Shown: piece after piece, positions 1-31,622 of the stretch
How the letters are laid out: each line of letters starts with the position of its first letter
How positions within the stretch are numbered: position 1 is the stretch's first letter
Assembly: GCA_017428495.1 (NCBI GenBank)
Contig: JAFRQS010000032.1
Coordinates: forward strand, 148-64,147
DNA from: Bacilli bacterium
Lineage (GTDB): Bacteria > Bacillota_I > Bacilli_A > RF39 > UBA660
Direction: 5' to 3'
Length of the DNA stretch: 64,000 nt
Translations under genes and position numbers: made by a program
Notes under the pieces: model-generated
Seen by the model: the letters and a program-made list of their open reading frames with translations, nothing else
The model's database searches: none
What the model was told of the DNA's origin: nothing

Positions 1-177
1 ATAGAAAAACATACAAGATAGTTGTTAAGTGCAAATTCAAAGTGCAAAATTTGCACTTTAAACAATAAAAACTATACATTGTAATTAGGTAAGAATTAAG
101 CAAGAATTAAGCAAGATGTATTGATAAAATTATATATATGTAGTATAATAATAACATAAGAATTAGAGGTGATTTTA

Positions 178-1173
178 ATGAACGATTATAAACCCCCATT
201 TACTATTACAAATAAAATGTTAGATTATGTGTCTAGTATAATGGAAAAGATTGGTAAATTAGATAATTATACTAATTTTAACAAAATGCCAGTATTAAGG
301 AGAAATAATAGAATTAAATCTATTCACTCATCACTAGCTATTGAAGCAAATTCTTTATCATTAGGACAAGTAAAAGATGTTATAGCTGGTAGAACAGTTA
401 TAGGAACTCAAAAAGAAATTCAAGAAGTAAAAAATGCATATAATGCTTATGAAATGATTAATAAAGTTGATGTTTATTCTATAAAAGATTTAAAAAAAGT
501 TCATGGCATTATGACATACTTAACAGTAGATGAATCTGGTGAATTTAGAAAAGGGAATGAAGGAGTTTTTGATGAAAAAGGTAATTGTATTCATGTTTGT
601 CCACCACCTGAACAAGTTGATGGATTAATGAAACAGTTATTTGAATGGATAAAAAAGAATAATGATGAAATTCACCCATTAATTTTATCATCCATTTTTC
701 ATTATGAATTTGTATTTATTCATCCTTTTTCAGATGGAAATGGTAGAACAGTTAGATTGTGGCAAAATATTTTATTATCTAAATGGAAGGATATATTTGA
801 ATACTTACCAATAGAATCGCAAATACATAAATATCAGGATGATTACTATAAAGCTATCAATAATTGTAATCACAATGTAGAGTCCACTGAATTCATTGAA
901 TTTATGTTGAATATGATTGATAAAGTATTAGATGAAGCAATTAGAACTAGCTCAATTCCAGTAACTGAAACTGGAATAAATATTAACAAACTACTTAGTG
1001 TTATGGAATACAATGTTCCGATGACTGCAAATGAAATAATGGATAAATTGGGCATTAAATCAAAAGAAACGTTGAGATCAACGTACCTTGATCCAGCAAT
1101 AAAGGAAGGAGTTGTTTCATTAACAATTCCAGACAAACCAACAAGTAAAAATCAAATGTATTATAAAGTATAA
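178..1173 (+). CDS. Fic-domain protein with C-terminal HTH-like region
   Basis: Canonical Fic motif HPFSDGNGRTVR; N-terminal SSLAIEAN inhibitory-type motif; RBS gaggtga before ATG 178. Confidence 0.92.
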   Translation: MNDYKPPFTITNKMLDYVSSIMEKIGKLDNYTNFNKMPVLRRNNRIKSIHSSLAIEANSLSLGQVKDVIAGRTVIGTQKEIQEVKNAYNAYEMINKVDVYSIKDLKKVHGIMTYLTVDESGEFRKGNEGVFDEKGNCIHVCPPPEQVDGLMKQLFEWIKKNNDEIHPLILSSIFHYEFVFIHPFSDGNGRTVRLWQNILLSKWKDIFEYLPIESQIHKYQDDYYKAINNCNHNVESTEFIEFMLNMIDKVLDEAIRTSSIPVTETGININKLLSVMEYNVPMTANEIMDKLGIKSKETLRSTYLDPAIKEGVVSLTIPDKPTSKNQMYYKV

Positions 1174-1285
1174 TAACCGAACACAAATGTGTTCTGTTTT
1201 TAGTAATTTTCCGAACTCTTTTCACGTGAAAAATTTTTGAAATATGTGATATAATTTATGTAGAATGTTAAGAGGAGTGATAATC

Positions 1286-1945
1286 ATGGATTTAAAAGAA
1301 GCAATGAAAAAGAGACATATGGTTCGTAAATATACAGATAAACCTTTGTCAGACGAATTAATTAGGAAAATAAATGAAAGAATAGAAATAAATAATAAAA
1401 AATATAATCTTAATATGAAACTTATGATTAACAATAACAAAGGTGTAAGTAGTATCATGAAGTTAATAATGGCTAAAGGTGTAAATAACTTTATAATTCT
1501 TGCGGGAGATGTAAGTGAAAATTTAGATGAAAGATTAGGATATTCTGGTGCTGATATAATGTTATATGCACAAACGCTGGGATTAAATACATGGTGGGTT
1601 GGTGGAACTTTTAACAGATCTGTAAGAAAGTACGTGGATAATAAAAATGTAACTGGAATAATTGCTATTGGATTTGGTCAAACGCAAGGAGTTCCACATA
1701 AGTCTAAAAGTGTAGAAGACGTTTCTAAATATAAGGGTTCTACAATTCCTGAATGGTTTGTTAATGGAACTGAAAGTGCATTGCTCGCTCCAACAGCTTT
1801 AAATAAACAAGATTTCATTTTAATAGGGAATGGCAACAAAGTTAAAATAGAGTGTAATAATGGTATATTTACAGGAAGCAATGTGGGATTAATAAAATAT
1901 CATTTTGAATTAGGAGCTGGAAAAGAAAATTTTGAATGGGAATAG
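1286..1945 (+). CDS. Nitroreductase family protein
   Basis: AMKKRHMVRKY FMN-binding start; AQTLGLNTWW; C-terminal APTALNKQ; RBS aggag before ATG 1286. Confidence 0.85.
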   Translation: MDLKEAMKKRHMVRKYTDKPLSDELIRKINERIEINNKKYNLNMKLMINNNKGVSSIMKLIMAKGVNNFIILAGDVSENLDERLGYSGADIMLYAQTLGLNTWWVGGTFNRSVRKYVDNKNVTGIIAIGFGQTQGVPHKSKSVEDVSKYKGSTIPEWFVNGTESALLAPTALNKQDFILIGNGNKVKIECNNGIFTGSNVGLIKYHFELGAGKENFEWE

Positions 1946-2164
1946 TTAAAGATGAGTTGATGTTTTAATTAATGTCAGAAACTTTTGATATTCCAATCTG
2001 TTCGCAATAGGTTGCTAATGCGAAAACATTAATAAATAGAATAATCGTAAGATTAAGATATTACGAACTGTTAAGAGGTAGAAATACTTCTTTTTCTTAT
2101 GTACAAAATCGCAGCCTAAACTTATTTTAATAAAAGTGATAATTTGTTTGTAGAGGTGAAGAAA

Positions 2165-2832
2165 ATGAAAAGAAAGGTAGCAATATATGCTAGAGTTTCA
2201 ACAGAGCATGAAGCTTTATTTTATGTATGTTATAACAAAAAAACAGACCTAAGAGTAGATTTAAAGAAGCTTGCGGTATGAAAGAAGTTCAAGAATGGAA
2301 GTTGCAATATATGGCTGAATATATTTTTAGAAATCTTACTCAAAATCCTGATAATAGAAAACAATTATTTGAAAGATTAATGAAAGGAGTAGATATAGAT
2401 GTACATCCGGAAATAAAAATACAAGAAAGGATTAATAAATTAAAACAATTAATAGAAAAAGAAACAGAAAAGTTTGATAGATTAATAGATACATATTTAG
2501 ATAAAACAATAGATATAAACTTATATGATATGTTTCAAAAAAAGTTATCAAGTAGAATAGAGAAATATAAAATAGAAATAATAGAATTAGAAAAGAAATG
2601 TGAATCAATTGAACCATTAGAAGTTAGAATTGAGAATGCAAAAAAGAGTATTAGAAGATTACTTGATATCAACTATAATGGTGTTGATGATAAAATAATA
2701 GAAGAATTCGTAGAAAGGATAATTGTTCATAAAGATTACTTTGAATGGAAATTAAACTTTATGAATGATACAATAAAATTAGAAATAAGCGGAAAAAGCA
2801 AAAAAGAAGGATTTTTAATAGAACGCGAATAA
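2165..2832 (+). pseudogene. Large serine recombinase remnant (internal deletion plus frameshift)
   Basis: ATG 2165 reads MKRKVAIYARVSTEHE (catalytic YARVS motif), jumps to YVCYNKK and stops at 2279-2281; second frame carries EACGMKEV, a coiled coil and IIEEFVERIIVH typical of LSR C-termini; most of the catalytic and recombinase domains are missing. Confidence 0.85.
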
Positions 2833-2835
2833 TAA

Positions 2836-2958
2836 TAAGTCATTTTAGTCTCAATGGAGCGCGAAGGCGCTCCAAATCGGTTTCCTTTGGTTTATGGGTC
2901 ATAAGCAAATTTGGCTAATAAGAAATAGAATTAAGACTAGTAAAAACTAGTCTTTTTT
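2836..2958 (+). repeat. Intergenic element copy R1: taagtcattttagt ... aagactag-N6-ctagtctttt
   Basis: Starts 3 nt after the recombinase stop; contains perfect hairpin tggagcgc-gaag-gcgctcca (2855-2874); 3' part aligns with R3. Confidence 0.85.
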
Positions 2959-2989
2959 GTTATAATAACCATTGAATGGAGAGATAATA

Positions 2990-3508
2990 ATGAATAAAGA
3001 ATTAGCAGAAGAATTGATTGGAAAATGTGTTACTATTGCCTTAAGTGAATGCAAGGAAGGACAATATCCACTTGGTGCTATGGTAGTTGATGAAAATGGA
3101 GAAATAATTACTTCATTATGTAGTAATTTGAATGCAGGTTATGATGTTTCTGCTCATCCAGAAATGGTAGCAATAAGACGAGCTTGTGAAATAAAAAAAG
3201 ATAGATATTTAAAAGGGTGCTATTTAGTTACTACATTAGAGCCTTGTCCAATGTGTACTTCAGTTGCTATTTGGGCCAAAATGAAAGGAATTATTTTTGG
3301 GGCTTCACAAAACGATGCTATAGAATATTCTAACACTCATCCTGAAAGTAAACTTTCATGGAGGCAAATAACAGTACCAGCGTCTTATATTATTGAACAT
3401 GGAACACCCAGATTAGAATTATATGAAAATATACTAGAAGATGAATGTAAGAAATTATTAGATGAAGAATATGTAAAAACGAGGAAAAAGATAAAAAAGA
3501 ATAATTAA
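2990..3508 (+). CDS. Zinc-dependent nucleoside/nucleobase deaminase (TadA/guanine deaminase-like)
   Basis: AHPEMVAIR and LEPCPMC zinc-binding motifs; extended -10 tgttataat at 2958-2966. Confidence 0.88.
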   Translation: MNKELAEELIGKCVTIALSECKEGQYPLGAMVVDENGEIITSLCSNLNAGYDVSAHPEMVAIRRACEIKKDRYLKGCYLVTTLEPCPMCTSVAIWAKMKGIIFGASQNDAIEYSNTHPESKLSWRQITVPASYIIEHGTPRLELYENILEDECKKLLDEEYVKTRKKIKKNN

Positions 3509-3617
3509 TAGTCATTTTAGTCTTGGCTATTCCTAATGAGACTGTGGCACAAGCCGCAATCAAAGCAAAGAACAATTAATAATTAAGCAATTAAGACTAG
3601 AGTAATCTAGTCTTTTT
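3509..3617 (+). repeat. Intergenic element copy R2
   Basis: tagtcattttagtc immediately after the deaminase stop; ends aagactag-agtaat-ctagtcttttt. Confidence 0.85.
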
Positions 3618-3690
3618 GTTTAGAAACTTAAAATATTAAGAAAGTGTAAAAATATTCTTTTATATGATATACTATATATGAGGTGAATTT

Positions 3691-4383
3691 ATGATGAAAA
3701 AAATGTTATTAATATTATTCTCTTTAATATTATTAATTAATATTACGGGGTGTAATTCTAAGGAAGAAAAACAAAGTAACACTAAACAACAAGAGCAAAA
3801 ACAAGAAGAAAAGGAAAATAATAATCAGCAAAGTAATTTAAATAATAATACATATATTAAAGATGATGAGATTATTGAAATTGAAGATGAAGACAATAAA
3901 TTAATTGAAGATGAAAGAGTTACTGTGGAAAAAGTAATCAATTGTGAAGAATGTGTATATGCTTATTTTAGTGATGAAGGTGAAAATGCAAAAAAATTAG
4001 GTGATACATTATCAGATGATGAATATACTACTGATATAAATAATATTAAAACAATGGGTAATAAGCAAAGACACAATTTCTTTGGTTTAGTACTTTCCGG
4101 TAATACTATTTCAAAAGCTTATTCATGTATTTTAAAAGATAATAAAATATATTGTATTCAAGGATCTACAGATGGTGCTTATCATACAAATAATATTAGT
4201 ATTTTAAATCAAATATTTGGTGTAGATAAATGTAAAACTTTATCAGATGGACACAATTATTGGTGTACAGATGGGTATTATAATGGTAATTCTAAAACCT
4301 CTGGTTATACTGACCTACATTATGAAACAAGTTGTACAATATATGGAGCAGATTCTAATACTGGTAAATTGATTTGCCATTAA
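3691..4383 (+). CDS. Cys-rich lipoprotein, unknown function
   Basis: Lipobox-like LINITGC, Q/E/N-rich linker, C-terminal domain with multiple Cys. Confidence 0.75.
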   Translation: MMKKMLLILFSLILLINITGCNSKEEKQSNTKQQEQKQEEKENNNQQSNLNNNTYIKDDEIIEIEDEDNKLIEDERVTVEKVINCEECVYAYFSDEGENAKKLGDTLSDDEYTTDINNIKTMGNKQRHNFFGLVLSGNTISKAYSCILKDNKIYCIQGSTDGAYHTNNISILNQIFGVDKCKTLSDGHNYWCTDGYYNGNSKTSGYTDLHYETSCTIYGADSNTGKLICH

Positions 4384-4416
4384 AGACTAGACTATTGGTA
4401 AAAAATAGGAAATGAA

Positions 4417-4510
4417 TAAGTCATTTTAGTTAAATAATTGGCTTATGGTTGTACAAGCAAATGTGATTAATAAGAAATAAAATGAAGACTAGTAAAATCT
4501 AGTCTTTTTT
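4417..4510 (+). repeat. Intergenic element copy R3
   Basis: taagtcattttagt at 4417-4430; ttggcttatgg..aagcaaat..taataagaaata shared with R1; aagactag-taaaat-ctagtctttttt. Confidence 0.85.
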
Positions 4511-4583
4511 AATGAATGGTATTGTGACAAACTCTTGCAAAGTAAAAATATTTTTTTGTATAATTTAATATAGGAGGTATATT

Positions 4584-4967
4584 ATGAGAGAAGAAGCTTT
4601 AATGCTTAGTGAAGATGAATTGATGTCACTAAATACAATAGATGAAGTCATTAATTACATTATTCAATGCGGTAATAATGGAAGGAATGTATATTATGTA
4701 CATAATGGAGTATCTTTATATTCTTGCGATAATTATTCATTTGATGAGTATTATCTATTAGCAACAGGATTATCAAAAAGTGATAAACAAAATTTAGATG
4801 AAATTATTTATGGTAAAAATGGAAGCAGAAATGCATCTCATGAAGATTTGGTTGCATTAACTGATTTGGTTTTGCCTATTTATTCTTATTTAATAAAGAT
4901 GAATGAACTTTTAGTAGAAGAATTAAAGAATGGTAAACCAAAAACTAATAATGGTTTTTCTGTATAA
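4584..4967 (+). CDS. Hypothetical protein
   Basis: 127-aa ORF with strong RBS aggaggt and upstream tgtataat. Confidence 0.7.
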   Translation: MREEALMLSEDELMSLNTIDEVINYIIQCGNNGRNVYYVHNGVSLYSCDNYSFDEYYLLATGLSKSDKQNLDEIIYGKNGSRNASHEDLVALTDLVLPIYSYLIKMNELLVEELKNGKPKTNNGFSV

Positions 4968-5208
4968 AAAAAATTAAAAATGTTTATTAGTTTTTTGTGC
5001 AATAATCATTATAGATTGAGTTATATTGTTAAATGACAAATTAAAAATAATGAAGATAGTGATGATATGGAAAAACCATTTAAAAAACATGAAACTATAT
5101 TTACTATTGAGCTAATAGTTATTTATGTTTTAGTAAATCCATATAATTTTACTCTTTTAATTGCTATAATTATCATATGATTAAAATTGTGTAAAATAAA
5201 TTGTAGAG

Positions 5209-5628
5209 GTGATAATATTGTCATTAATTAAATGTCCTGAATGTAATAAAGAAATAAGTGATACATCTAATACTTGTATTCATTGTGGTTATAAATTAAA
5301 AGAAATTTCTAATTTAAGTAGAAATAAAAAAATATTAATTCTATCTGTAATAAGTATTTTAATAATTTTACTATTTATAATTATTAAAAATGTTAATAAA
5401 GGAGAATTACCATATTGTTATGATAATGATTATTTCTATAAGCAAATGCGAGATGAAATTTATGATGAATATTGGCAATATGATTTTATAGATATAGAAT
5501 ACTGCGATAGTAGACTTTTAAATGGTGAATTAGATGCATGGTGTCATTTTAAATATAAAAAAAATAAAGATAATAATTATGTAGAAAGTGATTTTTCAAA
5601 AACATTCTATTGTTCTCATAGTCAATAA
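5209..5628 (+). CDS. Zinc-ribbon membrane protein
   Basis: CPECNKEISD...CIHCG zinc ribbon followed by one hydrophobic helix; true start may be TTG 5218. Confidence 0.75.
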   Translation: MIILSLIKCPECNKEISDTSNTCIHCGYKLKEISNLSRNKKILILSVISILIILLFIIIKNVNKGELPYCYDNDYFYKQMRDEIYDEYWQYDFIDIEYCDSRLLNGELDAWCHFKYKKNKDNNYVESDFSKTFYCSHSQ

Positions 5629-5679
5629 GATTTATTTATAAATTATATTGTATAAATTAGAAAAATAAAAAGTATTATT

Positions 5680-5705
5680 AAGATTAGGTAAAACTAGTCT
5701 TTTTT
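5680..5705 (+). repeat. Partial intergenic element copy R4 (dyad/terminator only)
   Basis: aagattag-gtaaaa-ctagtcttttt. Confidence 0.7.
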
Positions 5706-5781
5706 ACAATAAAATCTGAGTAAAATGATAATTATATTGTTAAATAATTTTTTGTGTGATATAACTATTATGGTGATGTAC

Positions 5782-6408
5782 ATGAATAAAAATCATATTT
5801 TAAATTGTTTTCCATATTATATTGCATTGGTAATTATAACAGTATTCTTTGGTGTTATATATATACCATCGCATAGTATTGTAGACACTGGAAGCCTTTT
5901 TGCTCAAGCTATTTTTATTGGTATACTTGAAGAGCTTATTTTCAGATATTTCTTGCAAAATAAAATAGAAAAATTTTTAACAAATAAAGGAAAAAATAGA
6001 TTATATTCTATTTTTATAACGGCATTAATATTTGGCTTAATTCATATGACTAATATTATTCAAATGGATTATAGTTTTGGTAAAGCATTTTTTCAAAGTT
6101 TTAATGCTATATTAGCTGGATTATTATATGGCTCAATATATTATAAAGATAAAAAAATAATTCATGTTATGATATTACATTCTTTATATGATTTTGGCGC
6201 TTTTATTAGCAGTCCACTTAATAAGACGATTTTAGGCTTAGGTATATTAGATATATTGCTATATCTAATTGAAATAATAGTATTCTTCAAAGTTATTTTT
6301 GATATTACTGATTATATGAAAGATAAAAAAAATGTAGTTAATACTATTTATTATATTTCATGTATTATTGTATTAATTTGTATGATGTTATATTTTGTAA
6401 TTATCTAA
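5782..6408 (+). CDS. CPBP family (CAAX/Abi) intramembrane protease
   Basis: EELIFR, FGLIH and HSLYD motifs in a polytopic membrane protein. Confidence 0.85.
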   Translation: MNKNHILNCFPYYIALVIITVFFGVIYIPSHSIVDTGSLFAQAIFIGILEELIFRYFLQNKIEKFLTNKGKNRLYSIFITALIFGLIHMTNIIQMDYSFGKAFFQSFNAILAGLLYGSIYYKDKKIIHVMILHSLYDFGAFISSPLNKTILGLGILDILLYLIEIIVFFKVIFDITDYMKDKKNVVNTIYYISCIIVLICMMLYFVII

Positions 6409-6437
6409 AAACAAGTTTGTAACACTTAAGCTCAGAT

Positions 6438-6512
6438 AAAGTCATATTACAAGCTGTAATAAAGTTAAGAATAGTTAGTAAGAAAAAAGACTAGGTAAAA
6501 CTAGTCTTTTTT
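6438..6512 (+). repeat. Intergenic element copy R5
   Basis: aagtcatatt; acaagctgtaataaagttaagaatagttagtaa aligns with R2 acaagccgcaatcaaagcaaagaacaattaataa; aagactag-gtaaaa-ctagtctttttt. Confidence 0.75.
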
Positions 6513-6540
6513 GACAAATTAAGTGTATATATGGTATACT
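6511..6540 (+). promoter_or_regulatory. Sigma-A promoter of the asnA leader
   Basis: TTGACA 6511-6516, 18-nt spacer, TG-n-TATACT 6532-6540. Confidence 0.75.
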
Positions 6541-6544
6541 AATA

Positions 6545-6845
6545 TTGCGTTGAAGGTGAAAAGTATCCAAAATAGTTATTCGAGTGAGTTAGGTATAGTG
6601 TGAACTAATAATAACATTTGGTGAAAGAACACTCCTGAGCAGACTACCGAAAAGTTAAATCTTAGTAGATTAGTCCGGAAAGCAATCCGTTACCTTATTG
6701 CTAGGTTTGTTAGAACTGAAATAAGAGATTACTGTAATAACAAACCGTTTATATGTATATATAGATGGTTTTTTAAGTAATAAATTAAGGTGGCACCGCG
6801 GATACCCGTATTCGTCCTTATATTGTAGGATGATACGGGTTTTTA
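6545..6845 (+). promoter_or_regulatory. T-box riboswitch, Asn specifier
   Basis: AG-box-like gagtgag and gtgtgaa in stem I; specifier AAC at 6628-6630; T-box aaggtggcaccgcg 6787-6800; terminator acccgtattcgtcct...aggatgatacgggtttttt; upstream of asnA. Confidence 0.9.
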
Positions 6846-6867
6846 TGTTTGTGAAAGAAGTGATTTT

Positions 6868-6918
6868 ATGCTGGATAACAATAATAAGAATAATAATACA
6901 AAACAAATACTAATATAA
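6868..6918 (+). CDS. Putative Asn-rich leader peptide MLDNNNKNNNTKQILI
   Basis: 16-codon ORF with 6 Asn codons, preceded by gaagtga RBS-like sequence, between the T-box terminator and asnA. Confidence 0.4.
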   Translation: MLDNNNKNNNTKQILI

Positions 6919-6982
6919 AGTAGATAGTACTTACAATCTATCTTAGTTTAAAAATAATATATTTAGAAAGAGGTTATAAAAA

Positions 6983-7951
6983 ATGCAAAAGGAATTAAGT
7001 TATTTAGAAACATTAAAGGCAATAAATGAAGTAAAAAAATATTTTGAAAAACAATTAGAAATGAAATTATCTCTTATGAAGGTCGAAAGCCCATTATTTG
7101 TTAAATCCGATTCGGGTTTACAAGATACTTTAACAGGAGTAGAAAAAGGGGTTAGCTTTAAAAAGGGTAAAGAAAAATTTGAGATAGTTCATTCTCTTGC
7201 AAAATGGAAAAGAGATGCACTTGGAAGATATGAATTTCCAATGCATACTGGATTATATACTGATATGAAAGCAATTAGAAAAGATGAAACGGTTGATAGT
7301 ATTCATTCTATGCTTGTAGAACAATGGGATTGGGAAAAGATAATTAGTAAAGAAGATAGGAATATAGATTATTTAAAAGAGACTGTAAGAGACATTTATG
7401 AGGCAGTAAGACAAACACTAATATTTGTTAAACAAAAATATAAATTTATTACAGTTGATTTACCAAAATCAATATTTTTCATTACTAGTCAAGATTTAGA
7501 AGATATGTATCCTGATAAAACTCCAAAGATGCGAGAAGATTTAATTGTTAGAGATAAGAAAGCTGTATTTATAATTGGAATAGGTGATAAATTAAAATCT
7601 GGTGATTATCATGATTTAAGAAGCCCAGATTATGATGATTGGTCACTAGATGGAGATTTACTTGTTTTTGATAAAACTATTGATAAGGTAATTGAATTAT
7701 CTTCTATGGGAATAAGGGTTGATGAAAAATCACTTTTATCGCAATTAGAAAAATCTGGTTGTTTAGATAGGCTTGAATTACCCTACCACAAAAAAATTAT
7801 CAATCGGGAATTACCATATACGATTGGTGGCGGAATTGGGCAGTCAAGAATATTAATGCTTTTATTAGAAAAATCCCATATTTCTGAAATTCAAGCTTCA
7901 AGTTGGGAAACAGAAACATTAAAGGAATTAAAAGGAAAGAAAGTTTTATAA
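6983..7951 (+). CDS. asnA: Aspartate-ammonia ligase (asparagine synthetase A)
   Basis: IVHSLAKWKR, VEQWDWEK, RSPDYDDW, TIGGGIGQSR motifs. Confidence 0.96.
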   Translation: MQKELSYLETLKAINEVKKYFEKQLEMKLSLMKVESPLFVKSDSGLQDTLTGVEKGVSFKKGKEKFEIVHSLAKWKRDALGRYEFPMHTGLYTDMKAIRKDETVDSIHSMLVEQWDWEKIISKEDRNIDYLKETVRDIYEAVRQTLIFVKQKYKFITVDLPKSIFFITSQDLEDMYPDKTPKMREDLIVRDKKAVFIIGIGDKLKSGDYHDLRSPDYDDWSLDGDLLVFDKTIDKVIELSSMGIRVDEKSLLSQLEKSGCLDRLELPYHKKIINRELPYTIGGGIGQSRILMLLLEKSHISEIQASSWETETLKELKGKKVL

Positions 7952-7995
7952 TTATCATAATTTATGATACAATTTATTGTAGATAGAGGTGTAAG

Positions 7996-8292
7996 ATGAG
8001 CTTGATAATCAATATTTATTATACTGGAGAAAATGGTAGTGCAAGAAAATTTGCTAATGAAATGATTTCAAATGGAATAGTTGATAGAGTAAGAAAAGAA
8101 GAAGGAAATCTTAGATATGAATACTTTTTCCCAATGGCTGATTCGGAGACGGTCTTACTTATAGATAAATGGATAGATGAAGAGGCATTAAATATACATC
8201 ATAAATCTGCTATGATGAAAGAAATTGCAGAATTAAGAAAAAAATATGGATTGAAAATGAGAGTTGAAAAATATAAAGAATTGGAGAGTTAA
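7996..8292 (+). CDS. Antibiotic biosynthesis monooxygenase (ABM) family protein
   Basis: VRKEEGNLRYEYF...LIDKWIDEEALNIHHKS dimeric alpha-beta barrel pattern. Confidence 0.8.
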   Translation: MSLIINIYYTGENGSARKFANEMISNGIVDRVRKEEGNLRYEYFFPMADSETVLLIDKWIDEEALNIHHKSAMMKEIAELRKKYGLKMRVEKYKELES

Positions 8293-8293
8293 T

Positions 8294-8800
8294 ATGGAAT
8301 TTGAAGATATAATAAGAAAAAGAACTTCTGTAAGAAAGTTTAGTGATACAAAAATAGACAAAGAAAAATTAGATAAAATATTAGAAGCAGGTAGATTAGC
8401 ACCTACAGCTAAAAACAACCAACCATTTAAAATATATGTTGTTAATAGTGAAAATGGTCTTATGAAAATTGATAATGCTTCAAGGTGTAGATATGGTGCT
8501 AAAACTGTTTTAATAATATGTGGCAATAAAGATCAAGCATATCATAAAGGTGATTATTCTACTTATGAAATGGATTCATGTATAGTTGCTACTCATATGA
8601 TGCTTGAGGCAACTAATATTGGAGTAGATAATATCTGGATTGAATCATTTGATGAAAATATATTAAGGAATGAATTTAATATACCAAATGAATATATTCC
8701 AGTGTGTTTACTTCCTTTAGGGTACAAATCAGTAGATTGTCCAATTAACCCTTTGCATGAAAAAAGAAAAAATATTGAAGATATAGTAGTATATAAGTAA
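8294..8800 (+). CDS. Nitroreductase family protein
   Basis: RKRTSVRKF, LAPTAKNNQP, MMLEATNIGVDNIW. Confidence 0.9.
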   Translation: MEFEDIIRKRTSVRKFSDTKIDKEKLDKILEAGRLAPTAKNNQPFKIYVVNSENGLMKIDNASRCRYGAKTVLIICGNKDQAYHKGDYSTYEMDSCIVATHMMLEATNIGVDNIWIESFDENILRNEFNIPNEYIPVCLLPLGYKSVDCPINPLHEKRKNIEDIVVYK

Positions 8801-8920
8801 TTATGAGAATGTGAAACAATGAAAAGAAATACAATATTAGGTTTGATTATATTAAATGACATGATGTAATAGAATAAATTTGGATTCAGAAAAAAATAAT
8901 ATACAAACTAATAAATAATA

Positions 8921-8945
8921 AAGACTAGTAGAATCTAGTTTTTTT
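8921..8945 (+). repeat. Partial intergenic element copy R6 (dyad/terminator only)
   Basis: aagactag-tagaat-ctagttttttt. Confidence 0.65.
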
Positions 8946-8998
8946 ATTCAAAATATAGATATTTACATTTTTTGATATTAAATATATAATTAGTATGA

Positions 8999-11082: not shown

Positions 11083-11200
11083 ATAATTAAAATTGGAATA
11101 ATTTCATTAATTATTGTATTAGCAATAATTATATATTTGAATGTGTTATCTAAATAGAATTAATTATGGTTAAAGACTCTTTGGAGTCTTTTTTTTATGA

Positions 11201-16583: not shown

Positions 16584-16635
16584 ATTAAGTTAATACTTGA
16601 TCTTTTTTTATGATATAATTTTAATAGGTGATAAT

Positions 16636-31503: not shown

Positions 31504-31622
31504 ATCTTATAAAGAGTGATTGAGGGACTAGCCCTATGAAGTCACACCAACCTATTAAATTAGGTGGTAATGCTAGATCTATAAGATAACTTTGTGCGCA
31601 GGAGTTATCTTGGGCATTTTTT
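31504..31622 (+). promoter_or_regulatory. SAM-I riboswitch (short variant) with terminator
   Basis: P1 atcttata/tataagat; aagag..gagggactagccctatgaa; ccaacc..aggtgg; terminator aagataactt/gagttatctt; directly upstream of metK. Confidence 0.88.

Follow-up and report, generated by a model that had tools for sequence, protein, structure and literature searches.

Stacked gene units behind the 3′ end of ppdK in an uncultured gut Bacilli lineage: a probable SCC-like island of large serine recombinase insertions

Introduction

In the sections of PMC13739063 on which we draw, composite islands of the staphylococcal cassette chromosome (SCC) are described as being built at the 3′ end of rlmH by the Ccr large serine recombinases (LSRs); three of the four half-sites are alike, and the composites consist of tandem units with internal att boundaries, of which the outermost is the oldest and some lack a recombinase (ccr-less units). 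Here we analyse a stretch of 64,000 nucleotides from a Bacilli bacterium (assembly GCA_017428495.1, contig JAFRQS010000032.1, positions 148 to 64,147; hereafter the window), in which six copies of a junction element, named E1 to E6 and lying between positions 2838 and 8948, separate unrelated genes. We consider it quite probable that this array arose by SCC-like serial insertion of LSR elements at the 3′ end of the housekeeping gene ppdK, which left a stack of captured gene units behind.

The likeness to SCC and SCCmec, as those sections of PMC13739063 present them, is of several kinds: elements are inserted by an LSR at the 3′ terminus of a housekeeping gene that is itself conserved, the element half-sites resemble each other and the gene end, and tandem units, including recombinase-less ones, are separated by internal boundaries that repeat the gene end (here 66 displaced cores and 24 LSR-less units). 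The best named match of the LSR found here is likewise CcrB/CcrC. The locus differs from SCC in its target, the ppdK rather than the rlmH 3′ end; in its LSR, which at 154 bits for CcrB and 120 for CcrC falls far under the Ccr cutoffs of 900 bits; in its host, an uncultured small-genome gut Bacilli lineage; and in its units, which go down to ~0.5 kb with a single gene, each have a terminator-promoter head and stand in arrays of at least seven. None of the island's genes was recognised as a resistance gene. The original prediction, made from the letters of the window, recognised no described system and so passed over a close analogue, the SCC composites (PMC13739063, in the sections cited). In the literature covered (full text, supplements aside), neither insertion of an LSR at ppdK nor an array of single-gene cassettes based on LSRs was found to have been described. 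The ppdK island appears, from its make-up, to work like SCC, but it is not SCC.

Integrons use the tyrosine integrase IntI and folded attC sites with R and L boxes, and their promoterless cassettes rely on Pc. Like them, the island consists of co-oriented, mostly single-gene and functionally unrelated cassettes with a recombination site between them, and its content varies among relatives; unlike them, it is associated with a serine recombinase, its site appears to be a double-stranded mimic of a gene end, and each cassette has its own promoter-like box and terminator. The prediction had offered an integron-analogous platform or serial accretion at a serine-recombinase att site; accretion, with each unit bringing a site and a terminator, is the part that stood, and the integron is apt as an analogy. 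Repeated site-specific insertion at the 3′ end of a gene, with direct repeats of the gene end left behind and units without an integrase lying between the repeats, is shared also with the cis-mobilizable elements (CIMEs) of the ICESt1/ICESt3 family at the fda 3′ end and with tycheposons at tRNA genes, in which the enzymes are mainly tyrosine integrases and the units are larger.

Results

The junctions repeat the end of ppdK

The conserved element had been described correctly from the sequence alone, but what it is had been missed. The gene ppdK is present in single copy, on a second contig of the assembly (C21, 23979-21340, minus strand), and its end reads ...GCTGCACAAGCTGCAATTAAG...TAG (...GCTGCTGCACAAGCTGCAATTAAGGCGAATCAAAAATAG), then AAAGACTAGAAATAGTCTTTTTTT. 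By this comparison the middle box of the junctions, ACAAGCYGCAAT, consists of the last ppdK codons, and the inverted repeat behind it (the dyad) is a terminator of the ppdK type; in locus L011 an exact copy of the dyad serves as the terminator sequence of ppdK itself. The order within a full junction can be read directly: first comes a recombinase-side arm (5′ box and CC motif), next the core ACAAGC and the ppdK-like last codons with their stop, and finally the terminator and an extended −10 box. When 79 loci encoding relatives of the LSR were scanned for the core pattern together with the island itself, 79 of 93 matches read Q-A-A-I-... with a stop within 16 codons, 13 of them in real ppdK genes and 66 displaced. 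The in-frame stop was not counted as a test, because the filter demanded one and stops are frequent in AT-rich DNA. Beyond the core, the right arms of the elements and native ppdK ends are alike over ~15 nt. A strict pattern, core-N(5-30)-AGACTAG, matched 5 of 201 genomes of the order and is too narrow for gauging spread.

The dyad, AAGACTAG-N6-CTAGTCTT, was searched for with up to two mismatches. Its six copies in the window, at 2933, 3593, 4485, 5680, 6487, and 8921, are those originally listed, and none was found in any of 100 shuffles of the window; the copies at 5680 and 8921 have one mismatch each. The whole assembly (1,235,081 bases in 33 contigs, 26% G+C) contains ten, these six and four on the other strand of C21 (6222-9390), and the same search found none in the housekeeping part of the window, as had been claimed. 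As all ten lie inside two arrays, the dyad is not the common genome-wide terminator that, by the original prediction's own terms, would have told against its proposal. The 5′ box, AGTCATTTTAGT, stands exact where it had been reported, at 2838, 3510, and 4419, with three further exact copies in the C21 array, and in degenerate form (AAGTCATATT) at 6440; since this 12-mer has 34 genome-wide matches with one mismatch, only exact copies carry weight and degenerate ones are no evidence. Alignment also bore out the two subtypes of middle segment that had been distinguished, E2 and E5 having ACAAGCYGYAAT, and E1 and E3 having A[CT]AAGCAAAT[GT]TG..TAATAAGAAATA.

The predicted folding energies of the six window dyads range from −7.9 to −14.5 kcal/mol (z from −2.7 to −5.2), and each is followed by T5-7; a stable predicted hairpin and a U run at gene ends are what defines an intrinsic (Rho-independent) terminator, and a terminator consensus scan of the + strand flagged two of the six. 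A terminator hairpin whose T run (TTTTT) passes straight into an extended −10 sequence (TGnTATAAT) is a module found 54 times genome-wide, ten of these in the ~37 kb island. The sequences at 11172 and 13781, which had been taken for looser relatives of the dyad, proved to be other hairpins with this general module, as did one at 16610; this compact arrangement of an intergenic region also occurs outside the array. Rfam gave no family for the junctions, either in the window at the gathering threshold, where the T-box leader described below and a SAM riboswitch in the housekeeping part (31504-31587, RF00162, 66.7 bits) were among the only matches, or over C21:6000-12700 at E ≤ 1. A PreQ1 match in these window and C21 scans was judged to be due to chance.

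The cores accompany a family of large serine recombinases

The sole intact LSR of the assembly is a 541-aa protein encoded on C21 (14247-12622, minus strand), 7 kb behind ppdK. It has the Resolvase (PF00239) and Recombinase (PF07508) domains, both at E = 1e-27, and the long C-terminal part that mark an LSR; its PDB matches are the SPbeta, A118, and phiC31 integrases, and its best NCBIfam matches are the two Ccr models scored above. Among the 79 LSR-homologue loci, 16 have a ppdK end 2-6 kb upstream on the same strand, and at 40 of 65 displaced cores the unit on the left contains an LSR; where the LSR is the last gene its stop lies mostly 44-282 nt from the core. The left arms have the CC motif ~17 nt from the core (−21 to −14) and GnnGC adjoining the core. 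Of 24 LSR-less arms 19 have this motif, as do 31 of 40 LSR-adjacent arms; the rate among random 8-mers is 11%. A short common core, ACAAGC, between unlike arms, with an LSR gene near one end of the element, is the layout expected of att sites, and it is what the junctions show. From core to core, units with an LSR measure 4.8-14.4 kb (n = 10), and LSR-less units, mostly of one gene, measure 467-7653 nt, with most between 0.5 and 1.5 kb (n = 24).

The LSRs at displaced cores include Lachnospiraceae proteins 47-51% identical to the one on C21, for which the core reads ACAGGC; these sequences suggest that LSRs of this family target the end of ppdK in two classes of bacteria. In the Lachnospiraceae loci L042, L046, L047, L060, L066, L068-L070, and L081, a TCCTA-type arm and the core ACAGGCTGCAAT (QAAIA..*) stand 44-124 nt past the LSR. 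In L045, from the same metagenome-assembled genome as L005, a second, 49%-identical LSR is followed at its core by a C21-type LSR element, whose left end is 91% identical; the two complete LSR units, of different lineages, stand in tandem. LSR-adjacent left arms also contain a hairpin, which lies past the 5′ box and ahead of the CC motif (window 2856-2873; L015, L012, L019, L010, and L118) and is absent from short cassette arms; its stems differ by lineage and are still paired, and are of few types (GGAGCGC..GCGCTCC, GGAGTGT..ACATTCC, GAACG..CGTTC, and ACGGA..TCCGT).

What had been called the recombinase at the start of the window array is a dead remnant of an LSR (2144..2832, + strand, recognised by nucleotide matches and tblastn). 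About 18 N-terminal codons are fused out of frame to codons ~328 to the end, and ~310 codons are gone; window 2059-2215 matches the LSR start of L026, and 2217-2824 matches L015:10982-11589 at 84%. With tblastn, residues 361-539 alone were found, at 51% identity to the intact LSR, and Pfam gave no match for the open reading frame at 2278-2832. The remnant belongs to another lineage than the intact gene, its nucleotide identity being 84% to the L015 type versus 69% to the C21 gene.

Content varies and alignments break at the core

Variation of gene order and content was expected by the original prediction, with breakpoints at agtcattttagt; the variation was found directly. The breaks, however, do not lie at that box: copies of the same cassette begin and cease to be alike 34-66 nt downstream of it, at the core ACAAGC, and in some cases at the dyad. 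Among alignments of at least 88% identity and at least 300 nt between these sequences there were 255 informative ends, and 22 of them lay within 10 nt of a core, compared with 0.5% of random positions. One shared unit is a cassette with an HD-like gene, C21:9440-8015, which is 94.6% identical to L005:3598-5029 over 1439 nt; the homology starts at ACAAGC and stops just past the next ACAAGCTGCAATCAA, and the flanks are unrelated, the left one being the arm of a PP-loop cassette in one and an LSR arm in the other.

The deaminase of the window, queried against metagenome contigs, was found in six contigs at 80-99% protein identity, and in L123, L124, and L125 its cassette (88-99% identical) has other neighbours. 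In the window the order is dead LSR, deaminase, lipoprotein; in L123, an unrelated 263-aa gene, deaminase, lipoprotein, and then an insertion sequence (IS) inside the next dyad; in L124, PP-loop, deaminase, HD, the outer two being direct neighbours on C21; and in L125 the flank on either side is different. The window and L123 part immediately ahead of A[CT]AAGC; with L124 and L125 the homology ends at E2, just past ACAAGC. The loop of a junction dyad is interrupted in L123 (~2560-3634) and in L125 (~5260-5300) by sequence starting GAAGTGAACCCC, followed in L123 by IS3-like transposase open reading frames and forming in L125 a short palindromic insert; the dyad may thus be the target of an IS and of a miniature element derived from it.

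Post-ppdK content differs among the three other species of the genus, in none of which window 2833-6520 found a match: G199 has housekeeping genes at once, G436 has neither LSR nor cassettes, and G178 has one 9.3-kb LSR unit. In G101, of another genus, an LSR-less array lies directly behind ppdK and includes a homologue of the window lipoprotein. A scan of the family with window 2833-6520 as query matched 39 of 401 genomes at E ≤ 1e-10, and among the matches listed at least 23 of the 400 other genomes match only or mainly the junction segments. In the sequencing reads, a recurrent joint from 3581 to 6485 was rejected as an excision product; its sides are shorter than 30 nt with extra letters between them, as in a repeat artefact. 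One X9 read contig aligns to 2930-3560 and is then unlike for 61 nt past the core, a hint at most.

The window probably holds the distal part of the island

The start of C21, in reverse complement, overlaps the start of the window contig (C29) by exactly 141 nt, a stretch found in no other contig, and by this overlap the two arrays appear to form one island behind ppdK. In order from ppdK, it comprises the unit of the intact LSR; a stretch of C21 with seven junctions, built like those of the window and each behind one or two genes (encoding a membrane protein, a deaminase, a hypothetical protein, PP-loop-like, HD-like, and GNAT proteins, and a pair of XRE and 276-aa proteins); genes for a TetR protein, an MMPL transporter, a 705-aa protein, and a Xer-like tyrosine recombinase; and finally the window, with the Fic gene, the nitroreductase, the dead LSR, and E1-E6. 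The intact LSR adjoins the ppdK side and the dead one lies ~26 kb further out, which fits a stack whose newest unit is the one closest to the target; the cited sections of PMC13739063 make the same assumption for SCC composites. On this reading the window contains the outer and older portion of an island that grew by accretion behind ppdK. In it are a dead LSR of earlier date and no fewer than five units that lack an LSR.

A 226-aa membrane-protein gene lies between the LSR stop and the 5′ box on C21 (11912-12592, minus strand) and in L009 (11656-12336); it is absent in L003-L007, in which the 5′ box follows 16 nt past the LSR stop. The Xer-like protein (320 aa, C21:972-10 running into C29:1-141; 233 bits on a XerA-type model) is encoded mid-island, within the older LSR unit, and may be cargo or the cell's own dimer-resolution enzyme. 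The far end of the island could not be fixed by synteny, as the genes that follow ppdK in G199 lie here at C29:71572-73633 and polA and others are rearranged too.

All features of the window array are on the + strand. A Fic-domain gene (169-1173, Pfam Fic/Fic-like_C) and a TM1586-type nitroreductase gene (1265-1945, Pfam TM1586_NiRdase) precede the dead LSR and together (169..1945) are likely cargo of the older LSR unit, whose end is E1; window 1204-1992 matches L003:7075-7862 at 98% identity, inside the LSR element of L003 between ppdK and LSR. E1 (2838..2960) is the right end of the dead LSR unit. Its 5′ box (2838-2849) is followed by a hairpin (2856-2873), by the CC motif GTTTCCTTTGG and by the core in mutated form, ATAAGC (2901-2906); then come AAATTTGGCTAATAAGAAATAG, which is an alternative right arm, the dyad (2933-2954), and a T run into TGTTATAAT; L096 has an arm 83% identical to that of E1, but with the canonical ACAAGC core. 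Cassette gene 1 (2990..3508) encodes a cytidine/deoxycytidylate-type deaminase (PF00383, dCMP_cyt_deam_1, E = 4e-21). E2 follows at once (3510..3620) with the 5′ box (3510-3521), the CC motif CTATTCCTAATG, the core ACAAGCCGCAAT (3549-3560), which translates as (A)QAAIKAKNN*, and the dyad (3593-3614). Cassette gene 2 (3691..4383) encodes a 230-aa putative lipoprotein with a lipoprotein-type N-terminus ending ...INITGC, for which Pfam gave no family and which is 75-78% identical to array genes of L031, G101, G313, and G391. E3 (4419..4512) has the 5′ box (4419-4430), the core ACAAGC (4453-4458) with the alternative arm AAATGTGATTAATAAGAAATAA beside it, and the dyad (4485-4506); it is found also in L123, at 2521. 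The CC motif, present in E1 and E2, is absent from E3.

Between E3 and E4 lie genes for a 127-aa hypothetical protein (4584-4967) and a 139-aa membrane protein with a zinc ribbon found by domain search (5209-5628), and window 5113-5628 is 77% identical to a stretch of G039. E4 (5680..5706) is a dyad alone, with no 5′ box or core. It is followed by a gene for a CPBP/Rce1-like intramembrane protease (5725..6408; PF02517, E = 2e-18) and by E5 (6440..6513), in which the truncated left arm is fused to the core ACAAGCTGTAAT (6449-6460) ahead of the dyad (6487-6508). A T-box leader (6541-6822; RF00230, 99 bits) precedes asnA (6983-7951, Pfam AsnA), an ABM monooxygenase gene (7996-8292, Pfam ABM), and a nitroreductase gene (8264-8800, Pfam Nitroreductase); the three genes form a block between the dyads of E5 and E6, the last copy in the window (8921..8948) and again a dyad alone. 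The genes between the copies are thus as unrelated as had been claimed. A T-box leader 89% identical to this one sits inverted beside the deaminase cassette in L125 (L125:4117-4451), and the T-box/asnA block may therefore itself be a movable unit.

Discussion

We propose that the LSR family inserts circular elements into the last codons of ppdK, with the crossover within CAAGC of ...GCA CAA GCx.... To the right of the crossover the incoming unit would bring its own version of the end of ppdK, with last codons and stop, then a terminator hairpin of the ppdK type and, in many cases, an extended −10 (TGnTATAAT) serving its first gene; to the left it would bring an arm with the 5′ box, sometimes a hairpin, the CC motif, and GnnGC. 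Each junction would then be the scar of an LSR attachment site, made up of element arm, CAAGC crossover, and ppdK-end mimic. Insertion would leave ppdK whole and terminated and would give the new gene a promoter, and the older ppdK end, displaced downstream, would terminate the transcript of the unit before it. As the new right arm again resembles a ppdK end, over the ~15 nt noted above, the hybrid site beside ppdK can plausibly serve again, and repeated use would stack units with the newest beside ppdK. LSR-less units were presumably moved by an LSR in trans, or are leftovers of larger units, and secondary deletion and homologous exchange between near-identical dyads would strip cores and reshuffle arms. 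We infer the recombination chemistry, the re-use of the site, and the mobilisation in trans from this anatomy.

Several results weigh against serial insertion as set out here. The contiguity of C21 and C29 depends on a single assembler overlap. The reads, four runs kept as short non-bridging contigs, yielded no excised circle, empty-site pair, or recombination product, and in an all-versus-all comparison of the LSR-less units of 79 genome loci the HD cassette was the one unit shared at high identity. The left arm of the C21 LSR, GGATAAGTTAATTATCTGGTTTG, is without the CC motif that most cassette arms carry; this arm belongs to the assembly's only intact LSR and, judged by sequence, would count against easy mobilisation in trans here. 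LSRs canonically recombine attP with attB only, and re-use of a hybrid site would need a right arm that passes as attB, for which likeness of sequence is the argument. The remaining points concern the junctions themselves: 17 of the 255 alignment ends lie at dyads and not at cores, E4 and E6 have no cores, the PP-loop/deaminase junction of L124 (at 4345) has lost its core between arm and dyad, and the HD gene is headed in L124 by the alternative arm ACAAGCAAATTT... and in C21 and L005 by the canonical right arm. The coreless junction, the swapped arm, and the breaks at dyads indicate that deletion and homologous exchange between near-identical dyads also act, which would account for E4 and E6 as well.

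These same junctions, together with a window LSR that is visibly decaying through internal deletion, are what would be expected if the single-gene units were immobile by themselves, being decayed full LSR elements whose order had been reshuffled by homologous recombination and deletion between repeats of ~35-100 nt (dyad, T run, −10 box, and ppdK-like arm). We regard this explanation as rather unlikely, since most of the 24 LSR-less units span 0.5-1.5 kb and contain a gene that ends a few nt ahead of an intact arm, the CC motif is kept in 19 of them, and the recurrent breaks fall at one hexamer, too short for homologous recombination; the same neat trimming would have had to recur many times. 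It is very improbable that the junctions are an ordinary shared intrinsic terminator or an intergenic repeat (of the repetitive extragenic palindrome or miniature inverted-repeat transposable element kind) unrelated to recombination: the dyads do fold as hairpins with U tails, and terminator and extended −10 modules are spread over the genome, but ten of ten dyads lie in two arrays, the repeat reaches upstream into ppdK-derived codons and an LSR-linked arm, and no Rfam family matches. Scarcely credible is a true integron, with a tyrosine integrase IntI and attC sites, that uses the Xer-like recombinase at the contig joint. The cassettes are co-oriented and that recombinase is encoded mid-island, but against its score on the XerA-type model it reaches 64 bits on the integron-integrase model TIGR02249 (cutoff 265); the junctions, judged from their make-up and not by an attC model, are ppdK ends and LSR arms rather than attC-like imperfect palindromes, the cassettes have their own −10 boxes (TGnTATAAT), and the arrays of other genomes come after LSRs.

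Serial LSR insertion at ppdK is the reading that we prefer, and the window adds to it the half of the island that is older and lies farther from ppdK, a further LSR lineage, now decayed, and direct evidence of one cassette in different places in other samples. A wider proposal, which we put forward tentatively as a real possibility, is that the island represents integron-like gene capture by another enzyme class. The self-contained cassette would consist of a ppdK-end mimic, a terminator, a promoter, one gene, and an LSR half-site; cassettes of 0.5-1.5 kb would be excised as circles and inserted at ppdK by an LSR acting in trans; arrays would vary between strains in many genera of small-genome gut Bacilli, with related LSRs using ppdK in Lachnospiraceae; and the whole would be one case of a wider, undescribed class at conserved gene ends.

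The junctions offer a ready set of natural LSR attachment sites, as deduced from sequence, with a defined target in the ppdK end, and may be of interest for genome-engineering toolkits; the compact terminator-promoter head is in effect a natural insulator design, and the ppdK end is of practical use as a locus that marks how strains of these organisms differ. If single-gene units do move in trans, they would constitute a second, serine-recombinase route to integron-like gene capture in bacteria outside Proteobacteria. The setting would be a gut and rumen lineage, abundant but uncultured, whose genome measures 1.2 Mb and in which the gain of accessory genes is little known.

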